Assembly: GCA_965216215.1 (NCBI GenBank)
Contig: CBDCFO010000006.1
Location: 208,626-272,625, forward strand
Direction of reading: 5' to 3'
Source: Bryobacterales bacterium
Lineage (GTDB): Bacteria > Acidobacteriota > Terriglobia > Bryobacterales > UBA6623
Length of the DNA stretch: 64,000 nt
Each line of letters starts with the position of its first letter. Position 1 is the first letter of the stretch. The position numbers were made by a program, and so were the translations under genes. Below are positions 15,740 to 62,387 of the stretch, piece by piece. Below the pieces are notes generated by a model that saw only the letters and a list, made by a program, of their open reading frames with translations, did not search any database and was not told where the DNA came from.

Positions 15740-15768
15740 CTGTTCCCCGCACACGCGGGGATGAACCC
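15740..15768 (+). CRISPR. Orphan type I-E CRISPR repeat (single copy)
   Basis: CTGTTCCCCGCACACGCGGGGATGAACCC matches the 62051.. array repeat at 28 of 29 positions. It lies 27 nt downstream of the IS110 copy-1 right end. Confidence 0.6.
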
Positions 15769-15789
15769 TCCCGCGACCTGCAGGCGCTG

Positions 15790-27730: not shown

Positions 27731-28137
27731 CCTGTTCGGCCTCGCCCCCTTCGACCGCGACTCCGGACAGCACCGCGGCCACCGCTCCATCCGCGGCGGC
27801 CGCGCCCAGCCTCGCCATCTGCTCTACATGGCAGCCCTGACCGCGATCCGCTGGGAACCGGCCTCCCAGGTCTGCTACCAGCGCCTCGCCGCCGCCGGCA
27901 AGCCGCACAAGGTCGCCCTCGTTGCCGTCATGCGCAGACTCACCGGCCTGCTCGACACCCTCCTGCGCGAGAACCGCCTCTGGCAGCCCGCGCCGCCCGC
28001 CCGCGAACTGGAGGCCGCCGCGTGACACCGCTGCCGACCAGCCCCAGACCAACAGCCGGCTCTGTTGGGAAAACACGCATCAATTGCCCCTCGTCACCAC
28101 TTTTCCCCTAGAATCCGCTTGCCAAGAAACACGGAAG
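27731..28137 (+). mobile_element. IS110-family fragment (last ~98 codons plus right end)
   Basis: LFGLAPFDRDSGQHRGHRSIRGGRAQPRHLLYMAALTAIRWEPASQVCYQRLAAAGKPHKVALVAVMRRL...ELEAAA is highly similar to copy 2. The right end TTGCCAAGAAACACGGAAG matches the copy-2 right end. It is followed by CT (28138-39). Confidence 0.75.
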
Positions 28138-28165
28138 CTCAAGCTGCCGAACATGCTCGGCACAC
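28138..28165 (-). mobile_element. 28-nt 5' stub of a third group II intron copy, cut by the IS110 fragment
   Basis: The minus-strand sequence GTGTGCCGAGCATGTTCGGCAGCTTGAG is identical to the first 28 nt of intron B (31911 downward). Confidence 0.55.
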
Positions 28166-30037: not shown

Positions 30038-30039
30038 CA

Positions 30040-31911
30040 ATCGGGATAGGGGGAAGCCTCACGGCTCCACCCCTCCCACACCACCGTACATACGGGTCCG
30101 TATACGGCGGTTCGAACGGTGATGCTACTTCCGGATCTGGAGTCGCGGCAGGCCGAGCGAGGCGAAGTAGGCGTTAGGCAGTGCATAAGAAAGAGCGGGG
30201 CTTGCGGCCAAGCGCCAAGGGCCGTGGGCGCTGCCAGCAGTTCGAGCCGCCAGCCCTACACGCACATCCCTGCGACGCAGTTCCACGTATCTCCGCCTCC
30301 CACGTTTCCACTGTTTCCAGATCGCCGACCGCAACCTTCGCCGGGTCCACCCCTCTAAGCTTGCCAGCACGTATGGCGTTTCGCACTTCCCGAAATAGCC
30401 GAGCCATCCCCGCCCATAGCGGGCTATGTCCTCGACCATCCGTTCGTGGCTCACGCCCCGAGTCCGTCGCGTCAGCTCGCGCACCCGCCGCCGAAACCGC
30501 TGCACCGCTTGCGGTGCAATCCGCCGCTTCGGTTGTGGGTCCGATGACAGGCTGAAGCCCAGGAACTTCCGCTCCCATGGCCGCGCCACCGCGCTCTTGC
30601 TCTGGTTCACCCGCAAGCGGAGCGTCCCGGTGATGAAACGCGTCACGCTTTCCATCACGCGTTCCCCGGCCCGGCGACTGCCCACATAAATGTTGCAGTC
30701 GTCCGCGTACCGTGCGAACCGCAGCCCGCGTCGCTCCAGCTCCCGGTCCAGCTCGTCGAGCACGATGTTCGACAACAAGGGTGAGAGCGGGCCCCCTTGC
30801 GGGGTCCCCTCGTCCACCGGGCTCACCAGCCCGTCCTCCATCACACCGGCCGTCAGGAATGCCCGGACCAGCTTCAGCATCCGCTTGTCACTGATCCGTC
30901 GGGCCATCCGGGCCATCAAACGGTCGTGGTTCACTCGATCGAAGAATTTCTCCAAATCAAGATCTATCACCCATCGCCGACCCGCAGCCATCTGCCGCTG
31001 GGCCGCCTCGACCGCCTGATGCGCCGAACGCCCCGGGCGAAACCCGTAGCTGTGTTCGGAGAACGTCCGGTCCCAGTGCTCCTGCAGGACCTGGGCCACC
31101 AACTGCTGGACGAATCGATCCAGCACCGTCGGTATGCCCAGCTTGCGCCTGCCTCCGCCCGGCTTCGGGATGTACACCCGTCTCACCGGCTGCGGTCGGT
31201 AGGTCCCGCTCAGCAGCTGTTCCCGGATGGCCGGCCAGTGCTCGCGCAGGTGCCCGGGCAGATCGTCGACGGTCATCCCGTCCACCCCCGGACTCCCCCG
31301 GTTTCCCCGGACTCGTGCCAGCGCCCGCTTGCAGTTGCTCCGCTCGCAGGCTCGCTCCATCCACTGTTCGTCTGTAGTCGGGCTTTCGTCTCGTCGTCCC
31401 GCCGTGTGCGGTTCGGTCCCTTCCCCTGTCGCTTCCGGGGCTTCACCCCCTCCGTCGACCGGGAAGGCCAGCACTAGCTGGATGTTCTGCCGCATTCCAC
31501 TCACGAGAAACGCCGTTCTACTCGCCCCTCCGTCCGTTCAGGCCTTCGCCCCTTGCGGGGCTACTATGCCGTCTGCTGACTTCTGCCGTCCGGTCAGGTC
31601 GGACTACTCCTCCCTCAGTCCGGAATCCCGGACGGACGGCAGACCTCCCGAGGTAAGTTCGACAGCCTTCAGCGCACAACCGCCGGATTTACAACCAGCG
31701 CCCTTGATGGAACTGGACTTCGTCGTCATCGGCCGACTCGTCCGACGCTGTATGCCTCGTATCCGGTTCTTGTTCATCGGCTCGCGCCTTTGCTCCACGC
31801 TTCCTTCAGACCCCGCCTCGCAGCGACGCCCTTGCGCTTCGCTAGGACTTCACCTCCATCAGGTTGTCCAAGGGACTTCCACCCTCAAGCTGCCGAACAT
31901 GCTCGGCACAC
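30040..31911 (-). mobile_element. Group II intron, copy B (1872 nt), inserted directly after a terminator
   Basis: The 5' end is GTGTGCCGAGCATGTTCGGCAGCTTGAGGGTGGAAGTCCC at 31911. The 3' end ...CCCTATCCCGAT is at 30040. Only 2 nt (TG) separate it from copy A. Confidence 0.8.
30125..31504 (-). CDS. Group II intron reverse transcriptase/maturase
   Basis: 459 aa, near-identical to 28251..29630 with scattered substitutions, and carrying the same RT and X motifs. Confidence 0.9.
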   Translation of the reverse strand: MSGMRQNIQLVLAFPVDGGGEAPEATGEGTEPHTAGRRDESPTTDEQWMERACERSNCKRALARVRGNRGSPGVDGMTVDDLPGHLREHWPAIREQLLSGTYRPQPVRRVYIPKPGGGRRKLGIPTVLDRFVQQLVAQVLQEHWDRTFSEHSYGFRPGRSAHQAVEAAQRQMAAGRRWVIDLDLEKFFDRVNHDRLMARMARRISDKRMLKLVRAFLTAGVMEDGLVSPVDEGTPQGGPLSPLLSNIVLDELDRELERRGLRFARYADDCNIYVGSRRAGERVMESVTRFITGTLRLRVNQSKSAVARPWERKFLGFSLSSDPQPKRRIAPQAVQRFRRRVRELTRRTRGVSHERMVEDIARYGRGWLGYFGKCETPYVLASLEGWTRRRLRSAIWKQWKRGRRRYVELRRRDVRVGLAARTAGSAHGPWRLAASPALSYALPNAYFASLGLPRLQIRK

Positions 31912-44344: not shown

Positions 44345-44536
44345 ACCCGACTAGCTTAGCCAGTCGGGCGATCCCGACCATTCGCCCCTCGCTCGCCCGT
44401 TTGGGAGTCCGGGCCATCACCCCGAAACACTGACCTGAACCAAGGTCCCAGTTCGGCGAATCCTACCCGCAGCAAATCAGCCGTGCTACATTTTGACAAG
44501 TTCTGCGCCCACGCGGGCACTCGGAGGGTTCTAAAC

Positions 44537-45100
44537 ATGAAGAAAGAATTCTCGAGGCGCGATGCGGTTCGCTGGGCGAGCGGCGCGGCGATGGCGACCA
44601 TGTTCCTGCCGTTCAGCGCCAAGTTCGCAGCTTGGTCGCATCCCACCGAAGAGCCGCTGGCGACGCTCTTGCTGTGACGCACCGGCCGGGAAGTGACCAC
44701 CTTCGGCCCGGCCGGCGGCAACCAGATCCAGTGGGACCTGCCCGGCGACGAAGCCGTGCAGATCGTGGTCAAGGCCGTGCGGGCGGGCATGACGTACCTC
44801 GAAACCGCCAACAACTATTTCCTCAGCCAAGAGAAGATGGGCATGGCTTTCGGCATCCTGAACCTCAAGCCCGGCATTGATCACAGCCTGCGGGCACGCC
44901 TGTTCCGGGCGCTGCACGCGGGGCTGGCCCGAAGGGCTGCACGAAGCGCTACGACAAGGTGCTGGAACGGCTCAAGGAACGCTACCGGCAAGTCGCCGGG
45001 CAGTATGACATTGCCGTCGAGCGCGGTAGCGGCCAGGGGCGCGCGGCGCAGCCAATGGCATTTACCGAGTGCGTGGAGCCTTAGGCCTGGTGGACTCGGA
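44537..45100 (+). pseudogene. Tat-signal aldo/keto reductase, in-frame TGA and 3' decay/truncation
   Basis: MKKEFSRRDAVRWASGAAMATMFLP is a twin-arginine-like signal. An in-frame TGA lies at 44675..44677. Then comes RTGREVTTFGPAGGNQ...DEAVQIVVKAVRAGMTYLETANNY, an AKR N-terminal motif. Similarity is lost after about 44880 and the IS4-type element follows. Confidence 0.5.
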
Positions 45101-45190
45101 GCGTAATCGCCTTGAGATCAGCAGCTTATGGCTCAGGAAAGATTTTCTTGCGAATGCGCTTGACTTTAGCGGCCAATTCTGGCAGGTTGA

Positions 45191-47443
45191 ATGGGGAGGG
45201 TAACCGCTTTGGACCCGTTGATCCAGAATCTCAAGTCCACCAGCTTCTGCGGCCGACGCCTCACCCGCCGGCAGATCGCCGACATCCAGGAGGTCGTCCG
45301 CACGTTCCCCAAACTCAGCCGCAACGAACTGGGCCAAACCATCTGCGCGCACCTGCGGTGGCAGACCCCCTCCGGCAGCAACCGCATCCAGCTGGCGATG
45401 CGTCTGCTGGAGGAACTCGAACGGCTCTCGATCCTGACCCTGCCGCCCAAGCAGCGCCCCGGACGGGGCCGGCAAGAGCCGCTCGTGCCGGGCCCGCGGT
45501 CCGCTCCCCGGCCCGCCATCGAGGTGCCCCTGGCCGCGCTCACCCCGTTGCGGCTGGAGCTCGCGAGCGGCTCTGAGGCGGTTGCGGAGTGGAACGAATT
45601 CGTCGCACGCTACCACCCGCTCGGCTACCGCCAGCCGCTCGGCCAGCACCTGCGCTACTTCCTGCGCGACCGTGACGGCCGCTCGCTGGGCTGCCTGCTG
45701 TTCGACTTCGCGGCGGTCCAACTCGGCTGCCGCGACCAGTGGATCGGCTGGCAGGGGCAGGCCCACCGCAAGTACCTGCATCTGGTGGTGCGGAATGCAA
45801 GATATCTTCTGTTCCCGTGGGTCTCGGTGCAGCATCTGGCCAGCCACGCGCTGGGGCTGGCGGCCCGCCAGCTGCCGGACGACTGGCAGCGGGCGCACGG
45901 TTCGCGACCGGTTCTGTGCGAGACCTATGTCGACCCGCAACTCCACCGGGGGACCTGCTACCGGGCGGCTGGATGGCAGTGCCTGGGGCTCACCACAGGG
46001 GCGCGCGCGACCGCCTCGCAGCCGGCCAGGACGCCCAAGCAGGTCTGGGTGCGCCCGCTGCGGCAGGACTTTCGCTCGATCCTGCTCAACGGCCCGCCCA
46101 AGCGCACCCGCCAGCGGCGCGAGCCCGCCAGCGTCGACGCCTCGTTCGTGCAACTGTGGCAGGGCCTGATCGGCACGCTGACGCGGGTGGCGTCCGCGTA
46201 CGACCGCGAGTGGGTGCGCCGCCAGCGGACGCTGAACACCCTGCTGGTGGTCCTGTTCGTGTACCGCATCGTGTTCACGCCGGACAGCCGGGGCTACGCC
46301 ACGGTGCTGGCGGAGTTGTGGGCGCAGTGCCGTGCCCTGGACCTCGCACTGCCGGAGCGGCCGGTCACGCCGGCCGCGATCTGCCGGGCCCGCGCCAAGG
46401 TCAGCGAGGAGGTCTTCCTGCGCATCCACCGCGCCGTGCTCGCCGCAGGCCCCCCGGACCCGCCCCACAGCCTGTGGCTGGGCCACCGCACCTTCGCCGT
46501 CGACGGCTCCAAGCTCAACCTGCCCCGCCCGCTCGTCGCGTCCGGCTACCGCACACCCTCCCCGACGGCTGACTACCCGCAAGGCCTGCTCAGCTGCCTG
46601 TACCGGCTGCACACCCGCCTGCCGATCGACTTCGGCCTGCACGCCCACGCTGACGAGCGCCGTGCCGCCCGGCTGCATCTCGACGCCCGCGCCCCCGGCG
46701 ACGTCGTCGTCTATGACCGCGGCTACTACTCCTTCGCCCTGCTGCACGCCCACGCCGAGCGCGGCCTGCACGCCGTGTTCCGCCTGCAGGGCAACGCCAA
46801 CACGGCGTTCAAGGCCTTCATCCAATCCGACCGCCACGAGGCGCTCGTGACCCTCGCACCGACCGCTGAGGCCCGCTGCCAGCAGCCCGCGGCCGACTGG
46901 CGTCCCCTGCGGGTGCGGCTGGTCAAGTACACCGTCGGCCAGACCGTCTTCTCGCTCGCGACCACCCTGCTCGACGCCGCCCTCTACCGGGGGCCGGACC
47001 TCGCCCGGCTCTAGCATGGCCGCTGGAGCCTCGAGGAGTACTACAAGATCAGCAAAACCATGCTCGTCGTGGAGCAGTTCCGGGGCCGCAGCGAGCGGCT
47101 GGTGCGCCAGGAGCTGTACGCCCACTTCACGCTGGCAGCGCTGTCCCGGCTGTTCGCCAACCACAGCGAGGAGGCCTTCCGGGAGGGCCCGGACGGGCAC
47201 GGTCGGCCGGCGGTGCTGGCCAACTTCCGCCATACGCTGCACACGGTCGGGCGCCATCTGGAAGGGCTGTTCCTGAAGCGCGCCAAGGCGGTGGGCGATG
47301 TGCTGCAGCGGATCCTGGACGGGATCGGGGCCAGCCGCCAGCGGCGGCGACCGGGCCGCTCCTACCCGCGCCGTTCGCGCAAGCCCGAGACGAAGTGGAG
47401 GAACCGCAAGGCAGCCGGAACCGCAAGTCCAGCTATAGCCTGA
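45191..47443 (+). pseudogene. DUF4338 (DruA-like) domain fused to IS4-family DDE transposase; single in-frame TAG
   Basis: The N-terminal half reads W.EFVARYHPLGY...LRYFL...GCLLF...RDQWIGW...VVRNARYLLFPWVSVQHLASHALGLAARQLPDDW...PVLCETYVDP...YRAAGW, which is the DUF4338 pattern. The C-terminal half is DDE_Tnp_4-like (FAVDGSKLNLP...VVVYDRGYYSF). TAG at 47012..47014 replaces the Tyr of the Y-R-E-K block (LARL*HGRWSLEEYYKISK). The frame then continues to 47443. Confidence 0.7.
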
Positions 47444-47477
47444 CACCGTCGAAAATCGAGCCCGAACCCGAATTCCT

Positions 47478-47774
47478 TTTATGTTAGAGAGGTGCCGGAG
47501 AGAGGGATGGTCGCCACTGCCTCGGACTCTCTCTCCCCAGTGCCGCAGGTGGCGATAGCCACCGCTGCGGCAGGTAACAGATCCCTCCCTGCCCCAGCGC
47601 AGGGAGGCCCCCGGTGGGGCCTGGCCAGGCCCCACCGGGGGCGACGGGCCGGACCGTTTCACCCTCGGATATCAGATCCGTACTTAAGCTTGGTCGGCCT
47701 GTCGCAGCAATTCCTGCGCGACCTGAACGGAAGCGCGGATCAGACCCGCATCGCAAAAGGATAGGTACGCAGGA
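47478..47774 (+). ncRNA. Candidate IS110 bridge (guide) RNA in the left non-coding end
   Basis: The region has no coding potential and is densely structured. It includes the hairpin GCCGCAGGTGGC-GATA-GCCACCGCTGCGGC and a 36-bp perfect palindrome at 47607..47642. It shares the conserved blocks CGGACCGTTTC and AGCTTGGTCGGCC with copy 1. Variable segments are complementary to its own insertion junction (see findings). Confidence 0.45.
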
Positions 47775-48746
47775 ATGACACCTCCCACACCCACTGTAGT
47801 CGCCGGCATCGACGTCGGCAAGGCTAAGCTCGACGCCCACATTCTCGCAGGCGGAGTTGAGCGCCAGTTTGACAACACCAAGACCGGTCGCCGCGCCCTG
47901 CGCAACTGGCTGCTCAAGCACGACGTCACCCGGGCCGTATTCGAACCCACCGGCCGCTACCATCGCAACCTTCACCAGTGCCTTGCTGAAGCTGGCTTCG
48001 AGACCGTCCTGGTCAACCCCTTGCGCTCCCGGCGCTTCGCCGAAGCCATAGGAAGGCTCGCCAAGAATGACCGCGTCGATGCCGCCATGCTCGCTCGCTT
48101 TGGCCTCCTCGACGGCCTGGAAGCCACCCCGCCCCAGCCGCACAACCTCCAGCTGCTCAATGACTTGCTCGCCCTCCGCCGCAAACTCCTCGAGCAGCTC
48201 GGCGCCCTCCGCAAGCTCGCCGCCGAACTCGACCCCGAGGCCGCCGGCTGCCTCGGCACCACCCTCAAGGCCCTGCAGGCCGACATCGCTGCCTGCGACC
48301 GCCGCATGCGCCACTGCATCGCTGCCGACGCCGCACTCTCCCGTCGCGACGCCATCATCCAGTCGATCCCCGGCTTCGGCCCCGTCAACGCCGCCTCCCT
48401 CTGCGCCGCCATGCCCGAACTCGGCAGCCTCGGCCGCCGCAAGGCCGCCTCCCTCTTCGGCCTCGCCCCCTTCGACCGCGACTCCGGCCAGCACCGCGGC
48501 AGCCGCGCCATCCGTGGTGGCCGCGCCCAGCCCCGCCACCTGCTCTACATGGCCGCCATGTCCGCGATTCGCCACGAGCCTGCCTCCAAGGCCTGCTACC
48601 AGCGCCTCACCGCCGACGGCAAACCGCACAAAGTTGCTCTCGTCGCTGTCATGCGCAAGCTTGCCGGCCTGCTCGACACCCTCCTCCGCGCAGACCGCCT
48701 CTGGCTGCCCGAGCCGCCCAACTGCGAACTGGAGGCCGCCGCGTGA
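47775..48746 (+). CDS. IS110-family (DEDD) transposase/recombinase, copy 2
   Basis: 323 aa with VAGIDVGKAKLD...FEPTGRYH...KNDRVDA, and SIPGFGPVNAASLCAAMPELG...FDRDSGQHRGSRAIRGGR. Confidence 0.9.
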   Translation: MTPPTPTVVAGIDVGKAKLDAHILAGGVERQFDNTKTGRRALRNWLLKHDVTRAVFEPTGRYHRNLHQCLAEAGFETVLVNPLRSRRFAEAIGRLAKNDRVDAAMLARFGLLDGLEATPPQPHNLQLLNDLLALRRKLLEQLGALRKLAAELDPEAAGCLGTTLKALQADIAACDRRMRHCIAADAALSRRDAIIQSIPGFGPVNAASLCAAMPELGSLGRRKAASLFGLAPFDRDSGQHRGSRAIRGGRAQPRHLLYMAAMSAIRHEPASKACYQRLTADGKPHKVALVAVMRKLAGLLDTLLRADRLWLPEPPNCELEAAA

Positions 48747-48861
48747 TACGTCTGCTGGCATCCCCCCAACCTAAGGTCGGCACTGCGAGGAAACCCCGCC
48801 TCAATCGCCTCTCATCACCACTCTTCCCCGAAATTACCCTTGACAAGAAACACGGAAGCTT

Positions 48862-49174
48862 AAGTCAATGCGCTTCTGCAACTAAGTCAATGCCATTGGC
48901 GGCGCAGCTGGCCACCGCGATCCGGATCGAGCCCAACGGCAAGCATCCGGCGCGCGACGCCCAGGCCGGCATGTACGTGCTGCGCAAACGTCTGGCCCAG
49001 GCGGGCCTACGCCCCAGTTGGGAGACGATCCACTGCCAGCTCGCCGGCTGGGTCCGCCTCACCACCTCCCTGCGCGCGGCCGACGGCCGCTGGATCCAGT
49101 GCCGCCAGGACTCCCGCCCGGACGCCAAAGCCGCAGAACTGGCCCAGGCCATCGGCCTGGTGCCGCGCCTGTAG
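48862..49174 (+). pseudogene. C-terminal tail of an IS4/IS1634-like transposase (fragment)
   Basis: ...AQLATAIRIEPNGKHPARDAQAGMYVLRKRLAQAGLRPSWETIHCQLAGWVRLTTSLRAADGRWIQCRQDSRPDAKAAELAQAIGL resembles the C-terminal tail architecture of the IS1634 transposase at 63146.. (LQTLLDHLGSLTLNQVTL...RPTPLQAKAFALLEV). Confidence 0.4.
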
Positions 49175-51060
49175 TGTGCCGAGCATGCCCGTTAGCTTGA
49201 GGGTGAAAGTCCCTTGGACAGCCTGATGGAGGTGAAGTCCTAGTGAAGCGCAAGGGCGTCGTCGCGAGGCGGGGTCTGAAGGAAGCGTGGAACAAAAGCG
49301 CGAGCCGATGGACAAGAACCGGATACGAGGCATACGGCGTCGGACGAGTCGGCTACTGACGACGAAGTCCAGATCCATCAAGGGCGCTGGTTGTAAATCC
49401 GGCGGTTGTGCGCTGAAGGCGAACGAGCTTACCTCGGGAGATCTGTCGTCCGTCCGGAACTCTGGACTGAGGAAGGAGCAATCCGACCTGATCGGGCGGC
49501 AGAAGTCAGCAGACGGCATAGTAGTCCCGGCAAGGACGAAGGCCTGAACGAACGGAGAGGCAAGTAGGACGGCGTTTCTCGTGAGCGGAAAGCGGCAGAA
49601 CATCCAGCTAGTGCTGGCCTTCCCGGTCGATGGAAGGGGTGAAGCCCCGGAAGTGGCCGGGGAAGGGACCGAACCGAGCGCGGCGAGGCGTCGGGACGAA
49701 AGCCCGGCTAGAGACGAACAGTGGATGGAGCGAGCCTGCGAGCGGGACAACTGCAAGCGGGCGCTGGCACGAGTCCGTGCGAACCGGGGGAGTCCGGGTG
49801 TGGACGGGATGACCGTCGACGAGCTGCCCGGTCACCTGCGGGAGCACTGGCCGGCCATCCGGGAACAGCTGCTGAGCGGGACCTACAGGCCGCAGCCGGT
49901 GAGGCGGGTACACATCCCGAAACCGAGCGGTGGCAGGCGCAAGCTGGGCATACCAACCGTGCTGGATCGATTCGTCCAGCAGTTGGTGGCCCAGATCCTG
50001 CAGGAGCACTGGGACCGGACGTTTTCCGAACACAGCTACGGGTTTCGCCCGGGGCGTTCGGCGCATCAGGCGGTCGAGGCGGCGCAGCAGCAGATGGCTG
50101 CGGGCCGGCGATGGGTGGTAGATCTTGATTTGGAGAAATTCTTCGATCGAGTGAACCACGACCGTTTGATGGCCCGGATGGCCCGACGGATCGGTGACAA
50201 GCGGATGCTGAAGCTGATCCGGGCATTCCTGACGGCCGGTGTGATGGAGGACGGGCTGGTGAGCACGGTGGACGAGGGGACCCCGCAAGGGGGTCCGCTC
50301 TCACCCCTGCTGTCGAACATCGTGCTCGACGAACTGGACCGGGAGTTGGAGCGACGCGGGCTGCGGTTCGCACGGTACGCGGACGACTGCAACATTTATG
50401 TGGGCAGTCGCCGGGCCGTGATGGAAAGCGTGACGCGTTTCATCGGTTGGGAACCGTGATGGAAAGCGTGACGCATCACCCGCTTGCGGGTGAACCAGAG
50501 CAAGAGCGCGGTGGCGCGGCCATGGAAACGGAAGTTCCTGGGATTCAGCCTCACGGCACACCGCAAGCCGAAGCGGCGGCTCGCGCCGCAGACGGTGCAG
50601 CGGTTCCGGCGGCGGGTGCGGGAACTGACGCGACGGACTCGGGGCGTGAGTCACGAACGGATGGTGGCGGACCTGGCCCGCTATTGGCGGGGCTGGCTCG
50701 GCTACTTCGGGAAGTGCGAGACGCCATCGGTGCTGGCAAGCTTGGAACGATGGACCCGGCGACGGCTGCGGTCGGCGATCTGGAAACAGTGGAAACGAGG
50801 GAGACGGAGGTACGCCGAGCTACGCCGCCTGGGCGTGGACGTGGAACTAGCCGCACAAACGGCTGGTAGCGCCCACGGCCCCTGGCGCATGGCCAATAGC
50901 CCTGCTCTCCACCGCGCCCTCTCGAACGCCTACTTCGCTGCGCTGGGGCTACCGGGACTCCATCTTCGGACCTAGCTCAACCGGTCGAACCGCCGTATAC
51001 GGACCCGTATGTACGGTGGTGTGGGAGGGGTGGAGCCGCGAGGCTTCCCCCTATCCCGAT
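49174..51060 (+). mobile_element. Group II intron, third full-length copy (plus strand), with disrupted IEP
   Basis: The 5' end GTGTGCCGAGCATGCCCGTTAGCTTGAGGGTGAAAGTCCC is at 49174. The 3' end ...CTTCCCCCTATCCCGAT is at 51060. Confidence 0.8.
49581..50975 (+). pseudogene. Group II intron RT/maturase disrupted by a local duplication/frameshift
   Basis: ORF 49581..50459 ends right after YADDCNIYVGSRRA. The 21-nt sequence CCGTGATGGAAAGCGTGACGC is present twice (50416..50436 and 50454..50474). The maturase part resumes in ORF 50484..50975. Confidence 0.85.
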
Positions 51061-51384
51061 TCGCATGCGCACCAGCCACGCGGCGGATGCCACGCCGTCA
51101 CCGTCTTCCACGCAATAATCCACGCCCTCGACAGATTCTGTGATGCCATAACGCCCGACCTGCATCCGCAAGTTATCTCATTTCAATCACTTGTGCTGTC
51201 TCGAATTCGAATATTTAGAGTCGGCGAGCGACGCGTTGGCCTTAGCCGGGAAGCAGTAGCTGTTTGGGGTTGTTCCTACGGCTTTCGCCATCTGTAGGTG
51301 CCTCACTGAGCTTCCTGCTTAGCTACGTTTCCGCTCCCCGCTCACCGAACCCGGCGTGCCGATTGCCGGCCCCGCTCGCTGGAC

Positions 51385-52167: not shown

Positions 52168-52256
52168 GGGTTCCCCCGCCTATGCGGGATAGACCCTTGC
52201 CCCGAAACCAGTCTTTCTGTATGTAGGTGGTTCCCCGCACACGCCGGGATGAACCC
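52168..52256 (+). CRISPR. Degenerate CRISPR remnant with a variant I-E-like repeat
   Basis: The first repeat, 52168..52196, is GGGTTCCCCCGCCTATGCGGGATAGACCC. A 31-nt spacer follows. The second repeat, 52228..52256, is TGGTTCCCCGCACACGCCGGGATGAACCC. A further very degenerate repeat-like stretch lies near 52295. Confidence 0.55.
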
Positions 52257-52687
52257 GTCGCCAAAGTTCAGGACCTGACGACCGGAAGCACACCGGCTGT
52301 TTCTTGCGGGCACATGCCCCCAAGAGCCAGGTCGGGCAGCGCACCGGAAGCGCCGCCAGGGAATATTGCGTGGCGATCGTCTCGACCGGGGACCTGGGCA
52401 TGTCCCTGGCGGGAAATCCGGATTCGTGCGGTTGACCGGTAGCAACGACGGTTTGCGATCAACTCTCTGGCGTGGCACACGGTAGATCACAGAAAAAACA
52501 TTAATGGAAACCAATTAACCACAGATTCTCCATCTCCCTCCTGTATTGTCTGTGAACGGGGCCGCCGCCGCGCTACTGGCCCTGGCTCTCACCCACCACC
52601 AAGCCCCAACTTGCAAGCGATCGGGTCTATCAGCGTCATCGGGAATGGTTTGTGCCACTGGCAAGGCAGAGTGAGGGGGAATCTCGA

Positions 52688-53440
52688 ATGAAGAACGCGA
52701 TTGAACTCGGCCTGCTGCTGTCCGCCTGCGCGGACAACGGGTTCGACGACGGCATTCGCATCGACGCCGAGCTTGAGCCGCTTACGGGCGGGGGCGGCCC
52801 GGTCGAGCCCGCCGTCTACGTGGGGGGGGCCTACCAAGACGACTGTCGATGGGCCAGGCCCGAGGACACGGATTGTCGTGATTGACAACGTTCCGTCACA
52901 AGCGAACCGCTTGGAGGATGCCCTTCGACACCATCGAAAAGCGACGCGCATGCCGGAATTCGTCCGGGACCTGTCGGGATTGACCGGCCTCCCGGTCCAT
53001 CTGCCACGGAGCTTGTCGAGCCTGCAGTTTCCGCACCGTAATGCCGACGGCTATCCTCGCGACGCCAGGCTCGGCGATCAAGACTTCGTCAAGACGGATC
53101 TGGGACGGTCGATTTTCGGGGCGACAGCGCAGAGGTGCGGCCCCCTGATCGCCTGGTTTCCCCAGGCGTTGCTGTACGGGTTCTGGCAGTCCCACCTCGG
53201 CAAGAAGCGAGCCAGCACCAAGCACGCCCGCGCCTGGGTGTCCGAGATCGCAGGCTGGAATCCCGGGCCAACGGATGTTGCCAGGGTTCTTGGCCTCAAG
53301 GGCGACCCGCTCAACCTGAACGCTGACGAGCGGATCACATCTAGCCCGGACAACCGCTTGGCGTGGACGTTCGGCACCGGCGCTGTCGAGGGGGGCAAGC
53401 AAGACAGGCTTTCGGAGATCGGCCACGGCCAGGCCCGCGC
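52688..53440 (+). pseudogene. Csb1/Cas7 of type I-G (formerly I-U; GSU0053 family), frameshifted and 3'-truncated
   Basis: MKNAIELGLLLSACADNG...ELEPLTGGGGPVEPAVYVGG is followed by a frame change near 52860. The sequence then reads VVIDNVPSQANRLEDAL...SSLQFPHRNADGYPRDA...FPQALLYGFWQSHLG...ARAWVSEIAGW...SEIGHGQ. These motifs (SQANR.E.AL, PHR.AD, P..L.FG.W.S, SEI.G) are as I recall them for the Csb1 family. Confidence 0.5.
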
Positions 53441-53611
53441 CGGCAGCCGAGCCGCCATTGCCTGGGATTGCTGTCGAGGCCCGGAGGGGCTCGGGAACGC
53501 CGAACCGAGGGTCCTCTCGGCCGGCGCGGCCAGGATGGGATTCGCATGCGGAGCACGAGTCGGCGGATGCTCCGCTCGAGGCCCCGAGACGCAGCTGTCG
53601 AGGTTGAATCA

Positions 53612-56215
53612 ATGAGGGGCAAAGGACCGGAACTGATCAGCGGGTGGCCCGGCAAGCAGATCGAGGGCCGCACTCATCCTGCACTCTGGCACATGCTGGA
53701 TGTGGGAGCGGTCGCCACCTGCCTGCTGGCGCGTCGGTCGCTTACCGGAGACAGGCCTGCCGACCAGGCTGCGGCTCTCCTTGTCGTCCTCCACGATCTC
53801 GGCAAGTTCAGCTTCTCCTTTCGCGCGATACTGCTTGGCCGGCCCTACACGGGTCTCCGCCATTGGCAGCATAGCTACCGGCTGCTGCAGGACCATGACG
53901 ACGCGCTCGCCGATGTGGTCGGTGCGACACCCGGTGTCCGGAAGACCCTCTATGCCGCCGTGGCCGGGCATCACGGAGGTCCGCCGCAGCACTTGGAGAG
54001 CCGCACGCATACGGCCCAGTCCGCCCAGATCGGAGCCGAGGGGTCGCGTGCCGCGAGAGAGGCAATCGACGCGATCATTCCGCTTTTCGAGGGCGCATCG
54101 CTGGATGGCATGTCCGAGCCGGAAGCGCGGAGGCTGTCGTGGGCGCTTTGCGGGCTCACGGTGCAGGCCGACTGGATCGGATCGAATCCGGAATGGTTCG
54201 GGCCGAAGGATGCCGGAACCTCGGTTGGGAACTACTGGCAACAGGCCCTGGCCCGGGCGGAAACCGCGATTTCCGAGGCGGGATTGCATCATGCCCGGCC
54301 GCTTCCCGGCGGTGCAGCGAGAGTCCTGCACGGAACCGCCGCTCCCCGGCCGATGCAGGCGGCAGCAGCCGACGTGGACCTGCCGGGAGGGCCCCTGCTT
54401 GCCCTGATCGAAGATGCGACCGGCGCCGGCAAGACCGAGGCCGCGCTGATCCTGGCCGCGCGCATGATGGCCGCCGGAAAGGGGGACGGATTGTTCTTCG
54501 CCCTGCCGACGATGGCGACTTCGAATGCCATGCTGGCGAGGCTCGAGGCCATTGCGCCGCGGCTGTTCGCAGGCCGCCCGTCCCTGGCGCTGACGCACGG
54601 AAGGGCATGCATGAACGAGCTCTTCGCCGAGATCAGGGGACGCGACGCCTCCGATCCCGGTACCGGGGCCACGTGCGGGCGCTGGCTGGCCGACGACCGG
54701 CGGCGGGTCCTGCTCGCCGACATCGGCGTCGGCACCATCGACCAGGCACTGATGGCGGTCTTGCCGACCCGTTTCAACACGCTCCGGCTCCGGGCGCTGT
54801 CAGGACGGATCCTGATCGTCGACGAGGCCCATGAATTCGGGTCCTACATGGAGGCGCAGTTGCAGCGTCTGCTGCAGTTCCAGGCCATGCTGGGCGGCTC
54901 GGCGATCGTCATGACGGCGACCTTGCCGCTGGGAATGCGTGACGGGTACGCGAAGGCGTTCCAGAAAGGCCTCCGGGTCCGCCGGCCGCGCGAGGTGGCG
55001 GGCGACGCCTACCCGATGCTGACAGTCGTCGGGCGCGGAACCGACAGCGAACGGCCCGATCCGGTTCCGGCGACTTGCCGCGACGTCAAGGTGCATCGCC
55101 TTGAGGACGAGGATGCCGCGATGACCCTGTTGAAGTCCGGAGCGGGCCGGGGCGCGGCCTGCACGTTGATCCGGAACACGGTGGACGCGGCGATCGACGC
55201 GGTCTTAGTGCTGCGTGGGGCGGGAGTCGACGCGAACCTGCTGCACGCGCGGTTCGCGGTGGTTGACCGGCTGCGGCACGAAGCGGCCCTGCAGGCTTGT
55301 TTCGGGCGGGACGGCGTCGGCAGGGCAGGACGGGTCCTGGTCGCGACGCAGGTGGTCGAGGCGTCGCTCGACCTGGACTTCGACCTGATGATTTCCGACC
55401 TGGCGCCGATCGGGTCGCTGATCCAGCGAGCGGGCCGGCTGTGGCGGCACATGGACCTGCGCCCGGCGGCGCGGCGGCCCGTGGCGGGCCCGGACCTGCA
55501 CGTGCTCGCGCCCGACCCGGATGTGGTGCCGGACGCGAACTGGCTGAAGCGCCGCCTTGGCGCAGGGGCGCTGGTCTACCCGCAGGACGTCCAGTGGCGC
55601 ACCGCCAAGGCGTTGTTCGACAAGGGATCGATCCGTTCCCCCGGCGGCTTGCGCGACTTGATCGAGGCCGTGCACGGGAGAGACTTGCATGAGGTCCCCG
55701 AGGCGCTCAGCGGAGCGGAGATTGAAACGCTGGGGCGGCAGATGAGCGAGGCGCAGCAGGCATTCAACCAGGTGCTCGACGCGGAGGATGGGTACGACCA
55801 GCCGCAGATGCAGCGAGTGTTCGACGATGACCGGTTCCCGACCCGCCTCGGCATTCCGCAGGTGACCCTGCGGCTCGCCCGGGAGGCGGGCGGGCGGCTG
55901 GTGCCCTGGGCCGGCGAGGGCCCGCTCGGCTGGCAGGCGTCCGAGGTGCGGGTCTCTGCCGCGCGCTACCGGAACCTTGCGGGCGTGGACCAGGACCGGC
56001 CCGAGATCGCGGAGGTGCGAAACAGCTGGCCCGACTGGATGCAGGCTTCGGTGCTCGTAGCGCCGGTCGGGGAAAACGGATTGATCTGCGAGGGAATGCA
56101 CTACGATCGCGCCCTCGGAATCGTGTTCAAGGGCGGCCGGGAACACTCGATAGCGTCCCGCCTTGCCTGCCAGTCGGCTGCATTGATTCCTGGATCCACA
56201 GGGGCGTCCAGATGA
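53612..56215 (+). CDS. cas3: Cas3 (type I-E; HD nuclease plus SF2 helicase)
   Basis: The ATG at 53612 is the likely start, and the 53363 ORF start is an upstream extension. The HD domain shows HMLDVGAV...LHDLGKFSFSFR...AVAGHHG. The helicase shows DATGAGKTEAAL, LPTMATSNAM, LIVDEAHEF, TATLP, ATQVVEASLDLDFD and QRAGRLWRH. Confidence 0.9.
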   Translation: MRGKGPELISGWPGKQIEGRTHPALWHMLDVGAVATCLLARRSLTGDRPADQAAALLVVLHDLGKFSFSFRAILLGRPYTGLRHWQHSYRLLQDHDDALADVVGATPGVRKTLYAAVAGHHGGPPQHLESRTHTAQSAQIGAEGSRAAREAIDAIIPLFEGASLDGMSEPEARRLSWALCGLTVQADWIGSNPEWFGPKDAGTSVGNYWQQALARAETAISEAGLHHARPLPGGAARVLHGTAAPRPMQAAAADVDLPGGPLLALIEDATGAGKTEAALILAARMMAAGKGDGLFFALPTMATSNAMLARLEAIAPRLFAGRPSLALTHGRACMNELFAEIRGRDASDPGTGATCGRWLADDRRRVLLADIGVGTIDQALMAVLPTRFNTLRLRALSGRILIVDEAHEFGSYMEAQLQRLLQFQAMLGGSAIVMTATLPLGMRDGYAKAFQKGLRVRRPREVAGDAYPMLTVVGRGTDSERPDPVPATCRDVKVHRLEDEDAAMTLLKSGAGRGAACTLIRNTVDAAIDAVLVLRGAGVDANLLHARFAVVDRLRHEAALQACFGRDGVGRAGRVLVATQVVEASLDLDFDLMISDLAPIGSLIQRAGRLWRHMDLRPAARRPVAGPDLHVLAPDPDVVPDANWLKRRLGAGALVYPQDVQWRTAKALFDKGSIRSPGGLRDLIEAVHGRDLHEVPEALSGAEIETLGRQMSEAQQAFNQVLDAEDGYDQPQMQRVFDDDRFPTRLGIPQVTLRLAREAGGRLVPWAGEGPLGWQASEVRVSAARYRNLAGVDQDRPEIAEVRNSWPDWMQASVLVAPVGENGLICEGMHYDRALGIVFKGGREHSIASRLACQSAALIPGSTGASR

Positions 56216-56282
56216 TCGGAGCGGGGAGAGAGCGCCTAGGGCGCCAGAACAAGTTGCCCGGCATCACAAGAGCGTCACGGCC

Positions 56283-57769
56283 ATGCTGAACCTGATATCC
56301 GATCCATGGATCCCCGTTGTTCGCCGCGGCGGACGCGACACCGTGCGTCCGGATCAGATCGCCGAACCGGATGTCCTGCGCCCGGACTGGCCGCGACCGG
56401 ACCTGAACCTCGCCTGCCTCGAGCTGCTGGTCGGGTTGACCTACCTAGCCCATCCTCCGCAGGGCGGCGACGACCGCGCCAGCCCTCCAGGCGCCGCCAC
56501 GCTCCGCCAGGCGATGGAGCCGCTGGCGCCAGCCTTCAACCTGCTGGGCGACGGCCCGCGGTTTCTGCAGGACCTGGAGCCGCTGGCTGCCAAGGCGAAT
56601 CCGCCCGGGATGCTCTTCATCGACAGCGCGGGGGACAGCACGGCCAAGAAGAACGCCGACCTGATGGTCCGCCGCGGGCGGTACGAAGCTCTGCCGCTGC
56701 CTCTGGCAGCGATGGCGCTGTACACGCTGCAGGCATTCGCGCCGTCGGGAGGCGCAGGCAATCGCACGTCGATGCGCGGCGGGGGGCCGATGGTGACGCT
56801 GGTGAAGCCGGCGGCTGATGGGCTCTGGCCGCTGGTCTGGGCCAACGTCCCGAGGGGAGAGCGCCTGGAGCCAGAAGATCTGGATGCGCTGCCCTGGATG
56901 AGGCCGACGGCAACCTCCAAGCCCGTTGGCAAGAAGTCCCCGATCACCGTGCCGGCAAGCGACAGCCCTTCGAGGCCCGACCCGGAGATATTCTTCGGCC
57001 AGCCTCGCCGTCTGCGGCTAGTCGCCCGGAGCAACGTAGTGACCGAGGTCATCCAGCAGCCTTGGGGCACGAATTACGAGGGCTGGAGGCACCCGCTGAC
57101 GCCCTACTACAGGACCGGTACGGAAGTCTTGCCGCGGCATCCCAAGCCCGGCGGCTTCGGGTACCGCAACTGGCGGGGCGTGATCCTCCAGAGCGAGACA
57201 GGACTGCGTCCCAGGACCCTCCTGCAGTACCTGCGGGACATTGAGGGAGCCCGCTGCAGCCTGATCGTTGCCGGCTGGGCGATGGACAACATGAAGCCGC
57301 TCGACTTCCTGTGGTCCGAGCAGCCAGTGTTTCCGCTGTCCGCGAAGGACGAAGACCGCGCCGCCGGGGCGGTCGAGGCGGCGGAGCATGTGGGCTACGC
57401 GGTCGCCGCCTGCGTGCGTGACGGCGTGGGGGAGGGCGACCTGAAGTCTGGCGGCGGGCAGCGCGCACGGGAAGCGTTCTTCGCGGCTACCCAGGGCGCT
57501 TTCGAGGAGCTGCTGGAATCGCTGTCGGCGGGCGGGCGTTTCGCGCCGGAGGAATGGGTGGCGTCCATGCGGGGAGCGGCGCTGCCGATCTTCGACGGGG
57601 AGGTCATGCCCGGGCTCGCGGACCTAGGCGAAGCGCGGCGTGAGAAGGCAACCAAGGCGAGGTCCAGGCTGATTGCCGCATTCGCCGGAAGGCCGCCATT
57701 CGGCAAGAAGACCTTCGACCCGCTCGGAATGGAAACGCCGGCGAAACAGACGAGGCACAGAGGGCACGC

Positions 57770-57773
<4 letters not shown>
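56283..57773 (+). CDS. cse1: Cse1/CasA (Cas8e), Cascade large subunit
   Basis: MLNLISDPWIPVVRRGG...RPDLNLACLELLVGL parallels the E. coli CasA N-terminus (NLLIDNWIPVR...DMELAALALLVC). The product is 496 aa. Confidence 0.85.
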
Positions 57774-60045
<2,272 letters not shown>

Positions 60046-60049
<4 letters not shown>

Positions 60050-60747
60050 CGCTGTATCTCTCGCGGCTCACGCTGAACCGGTCGGCGCCGGCTGCCGCGC
60101 TGATGCCGCTGCTGAATCCGAGCGAGCCGGGCCAGGCGGCAGACGCGCATCACCGCCTGATCTGGTCGGTGTTTTCGGACAGCCAGGACCGCCAACGGGA
60201 CTTTCTCTGGCGGCATGACGGGCGGAGCCGCTTCTTTGTCCTTTCGGGCCGCCGGCCGCGAGCCAGCGAGTTGTTCCTCCCGCCCGAGACGAAGGTCTTC
60301 GATCCGGAGCTGCGGGCGGGCGACCGGCTGCAATTCACGCTGCGAGCGAACGCCACCAAGGACCGCGCTGCCGTAAGCCGGATCGAGAAGGACGACCGGC
60401 GCGGGAAGAGCCGGCGGGTCGACGTGGTGATGGACCTGATGCGGGCGGCACCAGAGGGCGCGAGGCGGTCGGAAATCCGGAACGCCATGGCGCAGGCCGC
60501 GGCCGCGGCCTGGATGGTTCGGCAGGGAGCCGCCAAGGGGTTTGCGCCGCGCATGACGGTGGTCGAAGGCTACTCGACGATCGAGCTTGGCCGTCAGCGC
60601 CGCCAGGGGGCCACCTTCGGCATTCTTGACCTGCGCGGGGAGATCGAAGTGACCGATCCCGGCGCCTTCCTGCCTGCGCTGGCAGCAGGGTTCGGGCGGG
60701 CCAAGGCCTGGGGTTGCGGGCTGATGCTGATCCGGCGAGCGCGGTGA
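60046..60747 (+). CDS. cas6: Cas6e (CasE) crRNA endoribonuclease
   Basis: The ATG at 60046 overlaps the cas5 stop (ATGA). The product begins MTLYLSRLTLNRS...HRLIWSVF...FTLRANATK and ends GFGRAKAWGCGLMLIRR. Confidence 0.9.
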
Positions 60748-61679
60748 CGCTGCCGGGGCTGCCGCCGCCCAGGCCCATCCCGCTGAAGGAGCGGGCTGCG
60801 CTGGTCTTTGTCGAGCGGTCCCAGATCGATGTCGCGGACGGGGCCTTCGTCGCCATCGACGCCGAGGGGGTGCGCACGCATATCCCGATCGGCGGCGTTG
60901 CCTGCCTGATGCTGGAGCCCGGTGCGCGGATCAGCCACAAGGCCGTCGCCCTGGCGGCGCAGGCGGGGACGCTGGTGACCTGGGTGGGCGAGGCGGGCGT
61001 GCGGCTCTATTCGGCGGGGCAGCCGGGCGGGGCGCGTTCGGACCGGCTCCTGTGGCAGGCGCAATTGGCGCTGGATCCGGCCGCGCGGCTGCGGGTCGTG
61101 CGCAAGATGTATGCCCTGCGGTTCGGCGAGGCGGCCCCGGCTAAACGCTCGATCGACCAACTGAGGGGGATCGAGGGCCAGCGTGTCCGCCATACGTACA
61201 GGCTCCTGGCGCAGCGGCACGGCGTCGCCTGGAAGAAGCGCGGCTACGATCCCGGCGACTGGAACAGTGCCGATGTCGCCAACCGCTGCCTGTCAGCTGC
61301 CACGGCGTGCCTGCACGGACTCAGCGAGGCCGCGGTGCTGGCAGCGGGCTACGCTCCGGCCATCGGGTTCCTGCACACGGGCAAGCCGCGCAGCTTCGTT
61401 TACGACATCGCGGACCTGTGGAAGCTGGAGACGGTCGTGCCCGAGGCCTTTCGCATCGCCAGCCGCGCGCAGAAGGGGAAGCTCGACATGCCGCTTGAGC
61501 GGGCGGTGCGGCTAGCCTGCCGGGACAGCTTCCGCAAGACGGGGCTGCTGGGCCGGATCATTCCGTGCATTGACGAGGTGCTGGCTGCCGGGGAGTTGCC
61601 AAGGCCCGAGCCGCCGGCCGAAGCGTTGGGTCCGGCGTTTGAAGAGGAGCAGAGCGGCGATGATGGTCATCGCGGTTAA
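60744..61679 (+). CDS. cas1: Cas1 (type I-E)
   Basis: A GTG at 60744 overlaps the cas6 stop (GTGA). [49 protein letters not shown]...[11 protein letters not shown]...LRGIEG...[20 protein letters not shown] is collinear with E. coli Cas1. Confidence 0.9.
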   Translation: [311 protein letters not shown]

Positions 61680-61974: not shown

Positions 61975-62050
61975 TCATCGCCGATGCGCAGAATGCCGGT
62001 AGAAATTCTGCCCCTGCGGAAGGTCTCTGCTATCAGGTACATAGCATCTA
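61975..62050 (+). promoter_or_regulatory. CRISPR leader (cas2-proximal)
   Basis: This 76-nt stretch lies between the cas2 stop and the first repeat and has lower GC (…GGTAGAAATTCTGCC…TATCAGGTACATAGCATCTAGT). The degenerate terminal repeat is at the opposite end of the array. Confidence 0.5.
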
Positions 62051-62387
62051 GTCTGTTCCCCGCACACGCGGGGATGAACCGCCCTCTTGTTACGGCACCC
62101 TTCTCGCACATGGCTGTTCCCCGCACACGCGGGGATGAACCGGGATGGAGCATCCGTGCAGCGTCTTCAAGAAGGCTGTTCCCCGCACACGCGGGGATGA
62201 ACCGGTCCTTCGAGCTGGGCTATCCTCACAAAGCCCCTGTTCCCCGCACACGCGGGGATGAACCGGCTTCGAGGCCACCCGATTCCCCCGCCTTGAACCG
62301 TTCCCCGCACACGCGGGGATGAACCGAGGCTGTTACCGCCAGCTCGGGCCATGGTGCCCTGTTCCCCGCACACGCGCACGCACCAAC
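62051..62387 (+). CRISPR. Type I-E CRISPR array: 6 repeats (29 nt), 5 spacers (32-33 nt)
   Basis: The repeat CTGTTCCCCGCACACGCGGGGATGAACCG occurs at 62051, 62112, 62174, 62235 and 62297 (the last with 1 mismatch). A degenerate last repeat at 62359 reads CTGTTCCCCGCACACGCGCACGCACCAAC. Spacers are 32, 33, 32, 33 and 33 nt. Confidence 0.95.

Follow-up and report, generated by a model that had tools for sequence, protein, structure and literature searches.

Region C1 of the transposase bears the motif Y-(2)-R-(3)-E-(6)-K in insertion sequences (IS) of the IS4 family, and those of the IS4 subgroup are listed in Table 1 of the family survey with sizes of 1,400-1,650 bp, target duplications of 10-13 bp and ends of the form xAATR (PMC2266710). 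Type I Druantia is a second described system of relevance, as the PF14236/DUF4338 module is named after its DruA protein; DUF4338 has been independently stated to be a GNAT domain (PMC10853773). Here we analyse 64,000 nucleotides from a Bryobacterales bacterium (assembly GCA_965216215.1, contig CBDCFO010000006.1, positions 208,626 to 272,625), hereafter the window, in which both appear in one element. Positions 45053-48898 are best explained, with good confidence, as a defective copy of a 2,463-bp IS4-family IS, nulled by a stop at codon 608 of its transposase (TAG608) that is an allele shared with other copies. The IS4 family itself is known, and an IS4-family IS with a built-in helical and GNAT (DUF4338) module is a new variant; none of the papers found to mention DUF4338 links it to a transposase fusion. 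As far as the searchable literature shows the element type is undescribed, and it is abundant in databases under generic names. Window coordinates are used throughout, with L-numbers for loci carrying family copies and P-numbers for protein relatives.

The boundaries of the element were set by comparison with copies at other loci, namely L001 (99.5% identity), L002 (96.5%) and L003. Homology to these copies begins at or within a few bases of 45053, breaks at 47478-48859 and resumes up to 48898, giving a true span of 45053..48898, or 2,463 bp once an inserted IS110-family element is removed. The motif CAATGGCATT stands at both termini and has only these two matches in the window (0.08 expected), the terminal inverted repeats match at 15 of 19 positions, including the first 10 nt perfectly, and a perfect 10-bp target duplication flanks the whole. 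Removal of the IS and one copy of the duplication restores a continuous open reading frame (ORF), in which ...GQGRAAQ is joined directly to LATAIRIEPNG.... The features of the two ends are as follows.

45043..45052, + strand: left target-site duplication GCGGCGCAGC, identical to the decamer at 48899-48908
45053..45071, + strand: left terminal inverted repeat CAATGGCATTTACCGAGTG, from the start of homology and the reading of the end
45156..45169, + strand: subterminal motif GCGCTTGACTTTAG, earlier taken as the left end, 104 bp inside the true end
48860..48874, + strand: subterminal repeat CTTAAGTCAATGCGC, earlier taken as the right end, with the IS110 insertion point at its left edge
48880..48898, - strand: right terminal inverted repeat, reverse complement CAATGGCATTGACTTAGTT, from the reading of the end and the window match
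48899..48908, + strand: right target-site duplication GCGGCGCAGC, identical to the left copy

The ends proposed from the letters alone (45156 and 48860) are thus subterminal, and the span given then was too narrow, the element being ~100 bp longer on the left and 14 bp longer on the right. Subterminal GCGCTTGACTTTAG resembles the right-end TAAGTCAATGC repeats, and TAAGTCAATGC recurs 22 bp beyond the right subterminal repeat, within the terminal repeat; from its sequence, the subterminal motif may be a transposase-binding site. With correct boundaries, target duplication and nested IS110, the region can be masked as nested mobile DNA.

A single frame of 750 codons plus TGA occupies 45191..47443 (+), and its sole internal stop is the TAG at 47012-47014, codon 608, which replaces the Tyr of the IS4 signature; the spacing of Y608-R611-E615-K622 on the window frame matches Y-(2)-R-(3)-E-(6)-K exactly. 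With the stop read as Tyr, Pfam returns PF14236 (DruA/DUF4338) at E 2.8e-27 (96.1 bits against a gathering cutoff of 27, aa 116-270) and PF01609 (DDE_Tnp_1) at E 4.3e-17 (63 bits against 23, aa 430-648). In P0001, an intact relative 96% identical to the window protein, the NCBIfam model NF033592 (transpos_IS4_1) scores 142.4 bits against a cutoff of 115 over aa 373-654. The sequence-only reading had proposed just such a frame, of about 750 aa at 45191..47443, with an N-terminal DUF4338 and a C-terminal IS4 DDE domain. Both Pfam families lie above their cutoffs, all six of the DUF4338 peptide motifs that it picked out are present in the translation, and the significance of the PF14236 match removes the prospect of a profile search without a hit. 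The main parts of the frame are listed here.

45191..47011, + strand: transposase ORF, codons 1-607 up to the premature stop, a 607-aa product without catalytic Glu615
45239..45424, + strand: N-terminal helical, winged-helix-like region, aa 17-78, from the AlphaFold model, winged helix-turn-helix by topology only
45548..46090, + strand: GNAT-fold domain, PF14236/DUF4338 'DruA' core, aa 120-300, from Pfam and Foldseek
46478..47134, + strand: IS4-type DDE catalytic domain, from PF01609, NF033592 and the Tn5-like model
46502-46504, + strand: catalytic D438
46688..46690, + strand: codon 500, CGC (Arg), Leu (CTC) in the family, from alignment and codon comparison
46715-46717, + strand: catalytic D509
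47012..47014, + strand: premature TAG for Tyr608 (TAT in sister copies), from the frame and sister-copy comparison
47033-47035, + strand: catalytic E615, within the YREK motif of codons 608-622
47015..47443, + strand: remaining open frame, codons 609-750 plus TGA, carrying R611, E615 and K622, with a GC content at third codon positions (GC3) of 0.88, like the upstream part

Tyrosine stands at codon 608 in all 16 aligned homologues that reach that position, and in an alignment of 79 relatives Y608 and R611 are invariant, with E615 and K622 nearly so. Sister copies read TAT or TAC at this codon, hence a single T>G change created the stop, in keeping with the earlier suggestion of one TAY>TAG change at the YREK tyrosine. 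As a separate observation, copies in an Amylibacter metagenome-assembled genome (MAG; L036-L058) have His (CAT) in place of this tyrosine in six cases and Tyr in two; the YREK tyrosine may not be essential, or the Amylibacter sublineage may be non-autonomous.

The AlphaFold model of full-length P0001 has a predicted local distance difference test score (pLDDT) of 86, and its best structural match is Tn5 (IS50) transposase (PDB 4DM0, 1MM8 and 1MUH; E ~2e-7), followed by piggyBac. The match extends over ~450-490 aligned columns at modest template modelling (TM) scores of 0.42-0.45, and the DDE/YREK active site is shared with Tn5. There is no match at the sequence level, and the family profile found none among PDB chain sequences. 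Tn5 differs further in its 9-bp duplications, its CT ends and the absence of a GNAT domain. Taken together, domain profiles and models describe, as part of the explanation given above and with the same good confidence, a predicted three-part transposase of 750 aa: a helical, winged-helix-like region (aa ~17-78), a GNAT domain (aa ~120-300) and a Tn5-like DDE/YREK domain (aa ~320-720).

Compared with the IS4 family as it appears in the survey text and Table 1 (PMC2266710), the element has the YREK signature, a single DDE gene without programmed frameshift, ends of the xAATR form (CAATG), a 10-bp duplication and a match to NF033592. The xAATR ends, the 10-bp duplication and the full YREK together place it in the IS4 subgroup. 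Its length of 2,463 bp, however, falls outside the size range of that subgroup owing to the N-terminal extension, and is ~0.9 kb greater than that of any member listed there. The transposase, at ~750 aa, is enlarged by a helical and GNAT module of ~320 aa, and the IS4 hidden Markov model aligns only from aa 373. The module is absent from the passages of the survey consulted, in which a text search for 'N-terminal' gave no occurrence (PMC2266710).

Copies of the element are numerous. A protein search gave 887 matches, the best 120 of which are almost all ~750 aa long with both Pfam domains. Source names among the matches include 'IS4 family transposase' (NCBI) and 'Druantia protein DruA/Transposase DDE domain' (JGI), and the PGAP-style names found are limited to the generic 'IS4 family transposase'. 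With one genome per GTDB species, 191 loci were recovered, and the element is multi-copy in Bryobacterales (Acidobacteriota), Amylibacter and other MAGs; a further 537 relatives lie on JGI metagenome contigs. Genome-derived relatives span 2,405-2,503 bp, CAATGGCATT is present at both ends of 102 elements, down to ~40% protein identity, and 10-bp duplications flank 49 family copies (43 of them perfect). Conserved CAATGGCATT termini and 10-bp duplications thus recur at many independent sites, and the family is a large, active IS4-family lineage. The plasmid collection held no full-length fusion, only the separate halves, and the best IS4 relatives found on plasmids align with aa 322-713 only, at no more than 36% identity.

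The N-terminal module was modelled separately. For aa 1-330, with 79 sequences as input, AlphaFold gave a structure of two units with a mean pLDDT of 90.9. The smaller (aa 17-78) has short strands at 18-19 and 22-23 and helices at 26-38, 44-54 and 63-78, and by its topology is presumed to be a DNA-binding, winged-helix-like region. The larger (aa 120-300) is an alpha/beta domain for which the top 50 Foldseek matches in the PDB are all GNAT acetyltransferases or GNAT-domain proteins, including 3owc and SpeG (5cnp/3tth), with a best E of 8e-5 and TM scores of 0.5-0.64 on the target. A conserved CYRAAxW with an invariant Tyr257 in the alignment resembles GNAT motif B in a by-eye assignment. The sequence-only reading, which had called for a structure prediction of these residues, had also described the biochemical role of DUF4338 as unknown; this was overstated, given the GNAT fold (PMC10853773, Foldseek).

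With type I Druantia DruA the window module shares the Pfam family PF14236, above its gathering score, and the same GNAT-type core (PMC10853773, Foldseek). It differs from DruA in being bound to an IS, fused to a transposase and part of a multi-copy family, and in not adjoining DruB-E. The DruB-DruE context is absent at the locus, where the neighbours are the IS110 element, a group II intron and a broken ORF, and relatives occupy dozens of unrelated sites. Searched against PADLOC, including the DruA model PDLC00002, aa 1-330 matched no family at E <= 0.01, and a standalone form of the module from Accumulibacter reached the DruA model at only E 2e-4. By sequence comparison, then, the module is a distant relative of Druantia DruA that stands outside that defence system. 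The PF14236/DUF4338 module, for all its name, is very often part of DDE transposable elements, which suggests a common origin of DruA and the IS accessory module, possibly by exaptation. It also offers a testable lead for DruA function, namely recognition of DNA ends or repeats coupled to an acyl-CoA-dependent step. It is unusual for a transposase to contain a GNAT domain, and its presence suggests that transposition is controlled metabolically or by acetylation.

The same module occurs as a separate ORF in other elements. In Accumulibacter (L061-L081, e.g. L065 1314-3855) a 311-aa DUF4338 ORF precedes an ISAs1-like transposase (PF13808 with a weak PF01609 match), the TGA of the first overlapping the ATG of the second (ATGA). 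We considered a programmed -1 frameshift in this element and rejected it in favour of the stop/start overlap. The Accumulibacter repeat is at least 2.5 kb long and has at least 15 identically matching copies in one MAG, five of which, compared pairwise, are ~99.8% identical. On plasmid pTs485 of the gammaproteobacterium Thiodictyon syntrophicum (L165, NZ_CP020372.1 278596-287438) a DUF4338 ORF lies upstream of an IS4-family transposase. The two form one insertion in a split DUF2235 gene, and the pair was itself later split by an integrase and an IS91 unit. As in the window element the module is ~300 aa long and 5' in a DDE element, with 44-45% identity (Accumulibacter) and 36% (Thiodictyon); unlike there, it is a separate ORF, and in Accumulibacter its partner is ISAs1-like. 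Among 1.8 billion cluster representatives, 6,815 relatives were found, of which the best 150 are mainly either ~300 aa or ~750 aa.

On this sequence evidence the module has DDE transposases as its partners again and again, in some elements fused to them and in others encoded by a coupled ORF of its own. The earlier idea that DUF4338 serves transposition is strengthened by this recurrence with two transposase families and in both arrangements. A similar duality is known from IS3 (OrfA/OrfAB) and IS1 (InsA/InsAB'), in which an N-terminal DNA-binding module is made alone, as a regulator, or fused to the catalytic domain, as the transposase. The likeness is a functional analogy of standalone and fused forms and not one of homology: the IS3 and IS1 modules have no GNAT domain, and frameshifting is absent from the window-type element.

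These comparisons suggest how an intact copy might work. The DDE/YREK residues are intact in relatives, and the element would move by cut-and-paste using DDE chemistry, as its family relations with Tn5 and Tn10 indicate. Its architecture suggests that the N-terminal module acts as an end-recognition and regulatory part, comparable to OrfA and InsA of IS3 and IS1. Within it, the helical region would be the part that binds the TAAGTCAATGC-type repeats at and just inside the termini, and the GNAT fold could serve as an acyl-CoA-binding or acetylating regulatory domain, or as a multimerisation domain.

The window copy itself is an ordinary dead IS among nested mobile elements. TAG608 ends translation before catalytic Glu615, codon 500 has changed from Leu to Arg and the right end is interrupted by IS110, hence no active transposase can come from this copy. 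The Leu at codon 500 is invariant in the alignment; its change to Arg (T>G) is unique to the window among the six copies compared as DNA, and the same Arg500 recurs in P0130, a 321-aa fragment. The TAG had been described as the only visible lesion, a view which L500R and the IS110 insertion, separating the last 40 bp of the element, correct. A further candidate, Y461D, was rejected as damage to an invariant residue, as position 461 is variable and P0017 has Asp there.

Nor is TAG608 a private lesion of this copy, as first pictured. It is present at six loci (the window, L001, L003, L013, L162 on a 55x contig, and L163), of which the window, L001 and L003 are unrelated sites, each with its own perfect target duplication. 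In all, ...ARL607 is the end of 17 distinct protein variants, among which three different sequence backgrounds occur. The survey of other copies for an intact Tyr codon that the sequence-only reading had proposed turned up Tyr in relatives and TAT608 in L164/P0139, an intact sister which differs from L001 at five positions over 2,463 bp, codon 608 being one, and which shares its sample with L001 and L162. Differences within the TAG608 lineage are 10 nonsynonymous to 4 synonymous, an approximately neutral ratio. TAG608 is therefore a null allele that circulates in the element population, in several copies, sites and genomes. It may have spread by trans-mobilisation from intact TAT sister copies together with gene conversion between copies.

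A stop common to many copies could also mark a true gene boundary, with TAG separating a DruA-like protein with a partial transposase from a restarted downstream protein. Gene callers do annotate a downstream ORF of 127 aa (47060-47443), also in L001, L162 and L163, and the module is truly a separate ORF in other element families. That ORF begins, however, at Met624, past R611, E615 and K622, so that neither product has the full active site. The relatives, judged by the best 120 of the 887, are nearly all single proteins of ~750 aa in which, across the 79 aligned, Y608 does not vary, and a near-identical sister copy has TAT. Such an arrangement of two genes rather than a fusion, raised by the sequence-only reading as the outcome that would overturn it, is hardly credible: the shared stop that it foresaw was found, yet the restart follows Glu615 and Lys622.

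The stop at codon 608 belongs to a wider pattern. In a survey of premature stops at 160 loci, every one found in an otherwise uninterrupted full-length copy is a Tyr(TAT)>TAG change, in six independent events (L015, L020, L022, L023, L024, L033, L035, L059, L093 and window 47012-47014). Codons 246, 337 and 508 are hit in one Bryobacterales chromosome, in the combinations {246}, {337}, {337,508} and {246,337,508}; the other events are at codons 453 (L024), 608 (the window lineage) and 286 (L093, an Illumina/SPAdes-style marine-sediment contig). Ordinary W>stop and Q>TAG changes are confined to copies that are truncated or frameshifted. Under the bulk substitution spectrum of the copies, TAT>TAG would be expected to make up 3.5-5.6% of nonsense mutations, and at most ~25%, as an estimate, under the transversion-rich spectrum of rare variants, giving a probability for six of six of ~3e-8 to 2e-4 under these two spectra. 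Rare amino-acid variants (window, L001, L003, L162, L164; P0121-P0157) comprise 17 T>G and 14 C>G changes against 12 transitions; this unusual excess of transversions towards G/C may reflect the mutational signature of the host, bias in conversion or leftover long-read error.

Several points weigh against the explanation of the window element as a nulled copy of this kind. Simple decay would not lead one to expect so strict a TAT>TAG pattern. Tn5/Tn10-like transposases of the IS4 family prefer to act in cis, which makes trans-mobilisation of a nonsense copy less easy. TAG608 copies seem to outnumber the intact copies of the same sublineage, and L003, in the TAG form, is the only family copy returned for one species-level MAG. 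L162 (TAG) and the intact L164, both full-length, are without matching target duplications, which suggests recombination between copies. In the GNAT domain the loop after the central strand reads PWVxVxxLAS, without glycines, and the canonical motif A (Q/R-x-x-G-x-G/A) is not evident by eye; and transposition, N-terminal DNA binding and acetyl-CoA binding are all predictions, drawn from sequence and models.

A refinement of that explanation, which we hold as a serious but tentative one, keeps the TAG alleles as true nulls and ascribes their tyrosine specificity to biased mutation or fixation. An A:T>C:G-rich mutation spectrum and/or GC-biased gene conversion would create and spread TAT>TAG. 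Only two nonsense changes raise GC, TAT>TAG and TTA>TGA; a T>G change in TAT gave rise to every TAG, and besides the rare variants counted above, most differences confined to one copy are transversions (T>G, A>C, G>C, T>G, G>C, C>T). The transposase ORF has a GC3 of 0.92, the highest among the window ORFs listed; a conversion tract (positions 620-735) brings TAG246 into the otherwise intact-type copy L020, and TAG608, as noted, lies on three backgrounds. The fit is imperfect, however, as the copies taken in bulk show an ordinary substitution spectrum, in which C>T prevails, and two of the events (L024 and L093) are singletons that conversion bias could not have amplified. Ordinary nonsense changes (G>A and C>T) are found in decayed copies, one of them in a Bryobacterales genome. 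In the Bryobacterales chromosome with the events at codons 246, 337 and 508 (L059 1-1395, OZ242039.1), a copy of an IS66-family transposase next to the IS has an otherwise open frame with one in-frame TAG, at which six of its sister copies read Gln and one reads Leu (APYFQVPD); the nonsense change is an ordinary one, CAG>TAG.

The tyrosine specificity would also follow if UAG at Tyr codons were read as Tyr usefully often, by a tRNA-Tyr without queuosine, a near-cognate tRNA-Tyr or a tRNA-Tyr(CUA) in the host or a co-resident mobile element, leaving Y>TAG copies attenuated but autonomous. The six events span at least three lineages and two sequencing technologies, far exceed the expected share of TAT>TAG, and have no W>stop or Q>TAG counterpart outside truncated or frameshifted copies; TAG alleles have also spread to several loci and genomes. 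The window stop is followed by C, and UAG then C is the leakiest in-frame stop reported in Salmonella (PMC9122581). Yet bacterial readthrough of UAG is reported to insert mostly Gln (PMC9122581), and intact copies of the family show no Gln>TAG. Of the stops counted with a crude composition filter for coding-like ORFs, in the window and beside family copies, roughly a quarter to a half are TAG, and so common a natural stop makes efficient global suppression unlikely. Copies with three TAGs (L023, L035) would yield negligible full-length protein at low readthrough, and there is no tRNA gene in the window or 60 loci. The TAG608 lineage evolves neutrally (10:4), the window copy carries L500R, the low ratio of nonsynonymous to synonymous rates (dN/dS) between TAG-sharing copies is explained by gene-conversion mosaics, and the IS66 copy, for its part, carries CAG>TAG. 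We consider this reading unlikely, and that of true nulls with biased origin or fixation more likely. Were amber leaky, TAT>TAG would be a near-synonymous, expression-attenuating change, which would explain why it is the sole premature stop in intact, propagating copies. Very improbable, lastly, is that the TAG calls are artefacts of long-read sequencing or assembly such as modification-dependent miscalls. Most TAG copies do come from related ENA assemblies or MAGs, some at only 8-10x coverage, and singleton variants are oddly transversion-rich. TAG608, however, is present in a 55x contig, one event lies in an Illumina/SPAdes-style contig (L093), and TAG is linked to other variants in haplotypes and recurs in several samples. 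Same-chromosome copies with identical sequence for 9 nt on either side are called TAT or TAG, which makes a context-dependent basecalling error unlikely.

Returning to the copies as nulls, the TAG pattern implies either that biased conversion or mutation drives a null through a repeat family or that amber is leaky specifically at tyrosine, and the population of copies shows, as a natural experiment, how an IS family may die out or hold itself in check. Other accounts of the pattern were tried and rejected. Global reassignment of TAG is contradicted by the many coding-like ORFs in the window and flanks that it ends, with no coding signal downstream. A mutT-like bulk spectrum fails as the whole explanation since the polarised spectrum is dominated by C>T and only rare or private variants are transversion-rich. 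Low dN/dS past the TAG is uninterpretable as proof of function given the conversion mosaics, and singleton differences are also not neutral. A CTAT-specific hotspot was dismissed, as a C stands before eight of the ten TAT codons in any case and the other events are CTATC; at CTATG sites, three of four are hit in one genome (p ~0.03). A general excess of in-frame TAG (28 TAG against 2 TGA interruptions) is mostly made up of this IS family or natural gene ends, and the single case examined outside the family, the IS66 copy, is the ordinary CAG>TAG described above.

In-frame TAGs were also observed elsewhere. A second DUF4338 paralogue (L041; 457, 712) has one in GTCFRAAHWT*VGQT, at a position that is often Tyr in the family. 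Others lie in coding-like ORFs flanking IS copies, namely a serine recombinase (L032 957, NPAMGGAYA*H) and a membrane-like ORF (L008 888); for the recombinase, the PDB alignment did not reach the site.

The IS110-family insert that separates the right end of the element is itself complete, and comprises the following.

47479..48858, + strand: inserted IS110-family element, ~1,380 bp, boundaries +/-3 bp, absent from L001 and L002
47775-48746, + strand: IS110-family transposase ORF, PF01548 and PF02371, NF033542

In L001 and L002, 47478 joins 48859 directly. The insert matches PF01548 and PF02371 at E 4.6e-22 and 3.8e-18 and NF033542 at 204.6 bits against 140, and lies 40 bp away from the right end of the element, bordering on a subterminal TAAGTCAATGC repeat. 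Of the IS110 copies first reported in the window, only this one inside the right end is complete; 27731-28143 is an IS110 3' fragment (82%) and 14770-15546 a different IS110-family gene (67%). Within the insert, a perfect 36-nt palindrome (47607-47642; ...CCCCGGTGGGGCCTGGCCAGGCCCCACCGGGG...) lies in the left, non-coding portion. IS110 elements encode their guide (bridge) RNA in that region. Among Rfam models searched over 26000-53000, only those of group II introns reached the gathering score. In other genomes, too, this IS family and IS110 relatives 80-85% identical to that of the window occur nested: L013 has one inside the IS4-type element at a different position, and in L024 the IS4-type element apparently lies inside an IS110 relative.

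The stop of the restored ORF abuts a group II intron at 49174-51068. The interrupted ORF, the IS4-type element, IS110 and the intron thus adjoin one another and make the region a stack of nested mobile elements. One group II intron is present in three copies, 93-97% identical, at 28166-31911 (-) and 49174-51068 (+); two are in direct tandem, abutted by the IS110 3' fragment (27731-28143), and the third begins at the stop codon of the IS-interrupted ORF. Upstream of the IS, 44483-45052 encodes an aldo/keto-reductase-like N-terminus with a signal-like leader (weak Pfam match, E 0.003) that is unreadable past ~44900, from where a different frame carries the C-terminal remnant interrupted by the IS; an older rearrangement probably took place here. 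A CRISPR-like repeat, GTTCCCCGCACACGCGGGGATGAACC, is scattered over 15728-15792, 52216-52280 and 62041-62350 (spacing 61-62 bp at 62041-62207), with long ORFs between the repeats at 53345-61679, and these may be the remains of a CRISPR-cas locus broken up by mobile elements.

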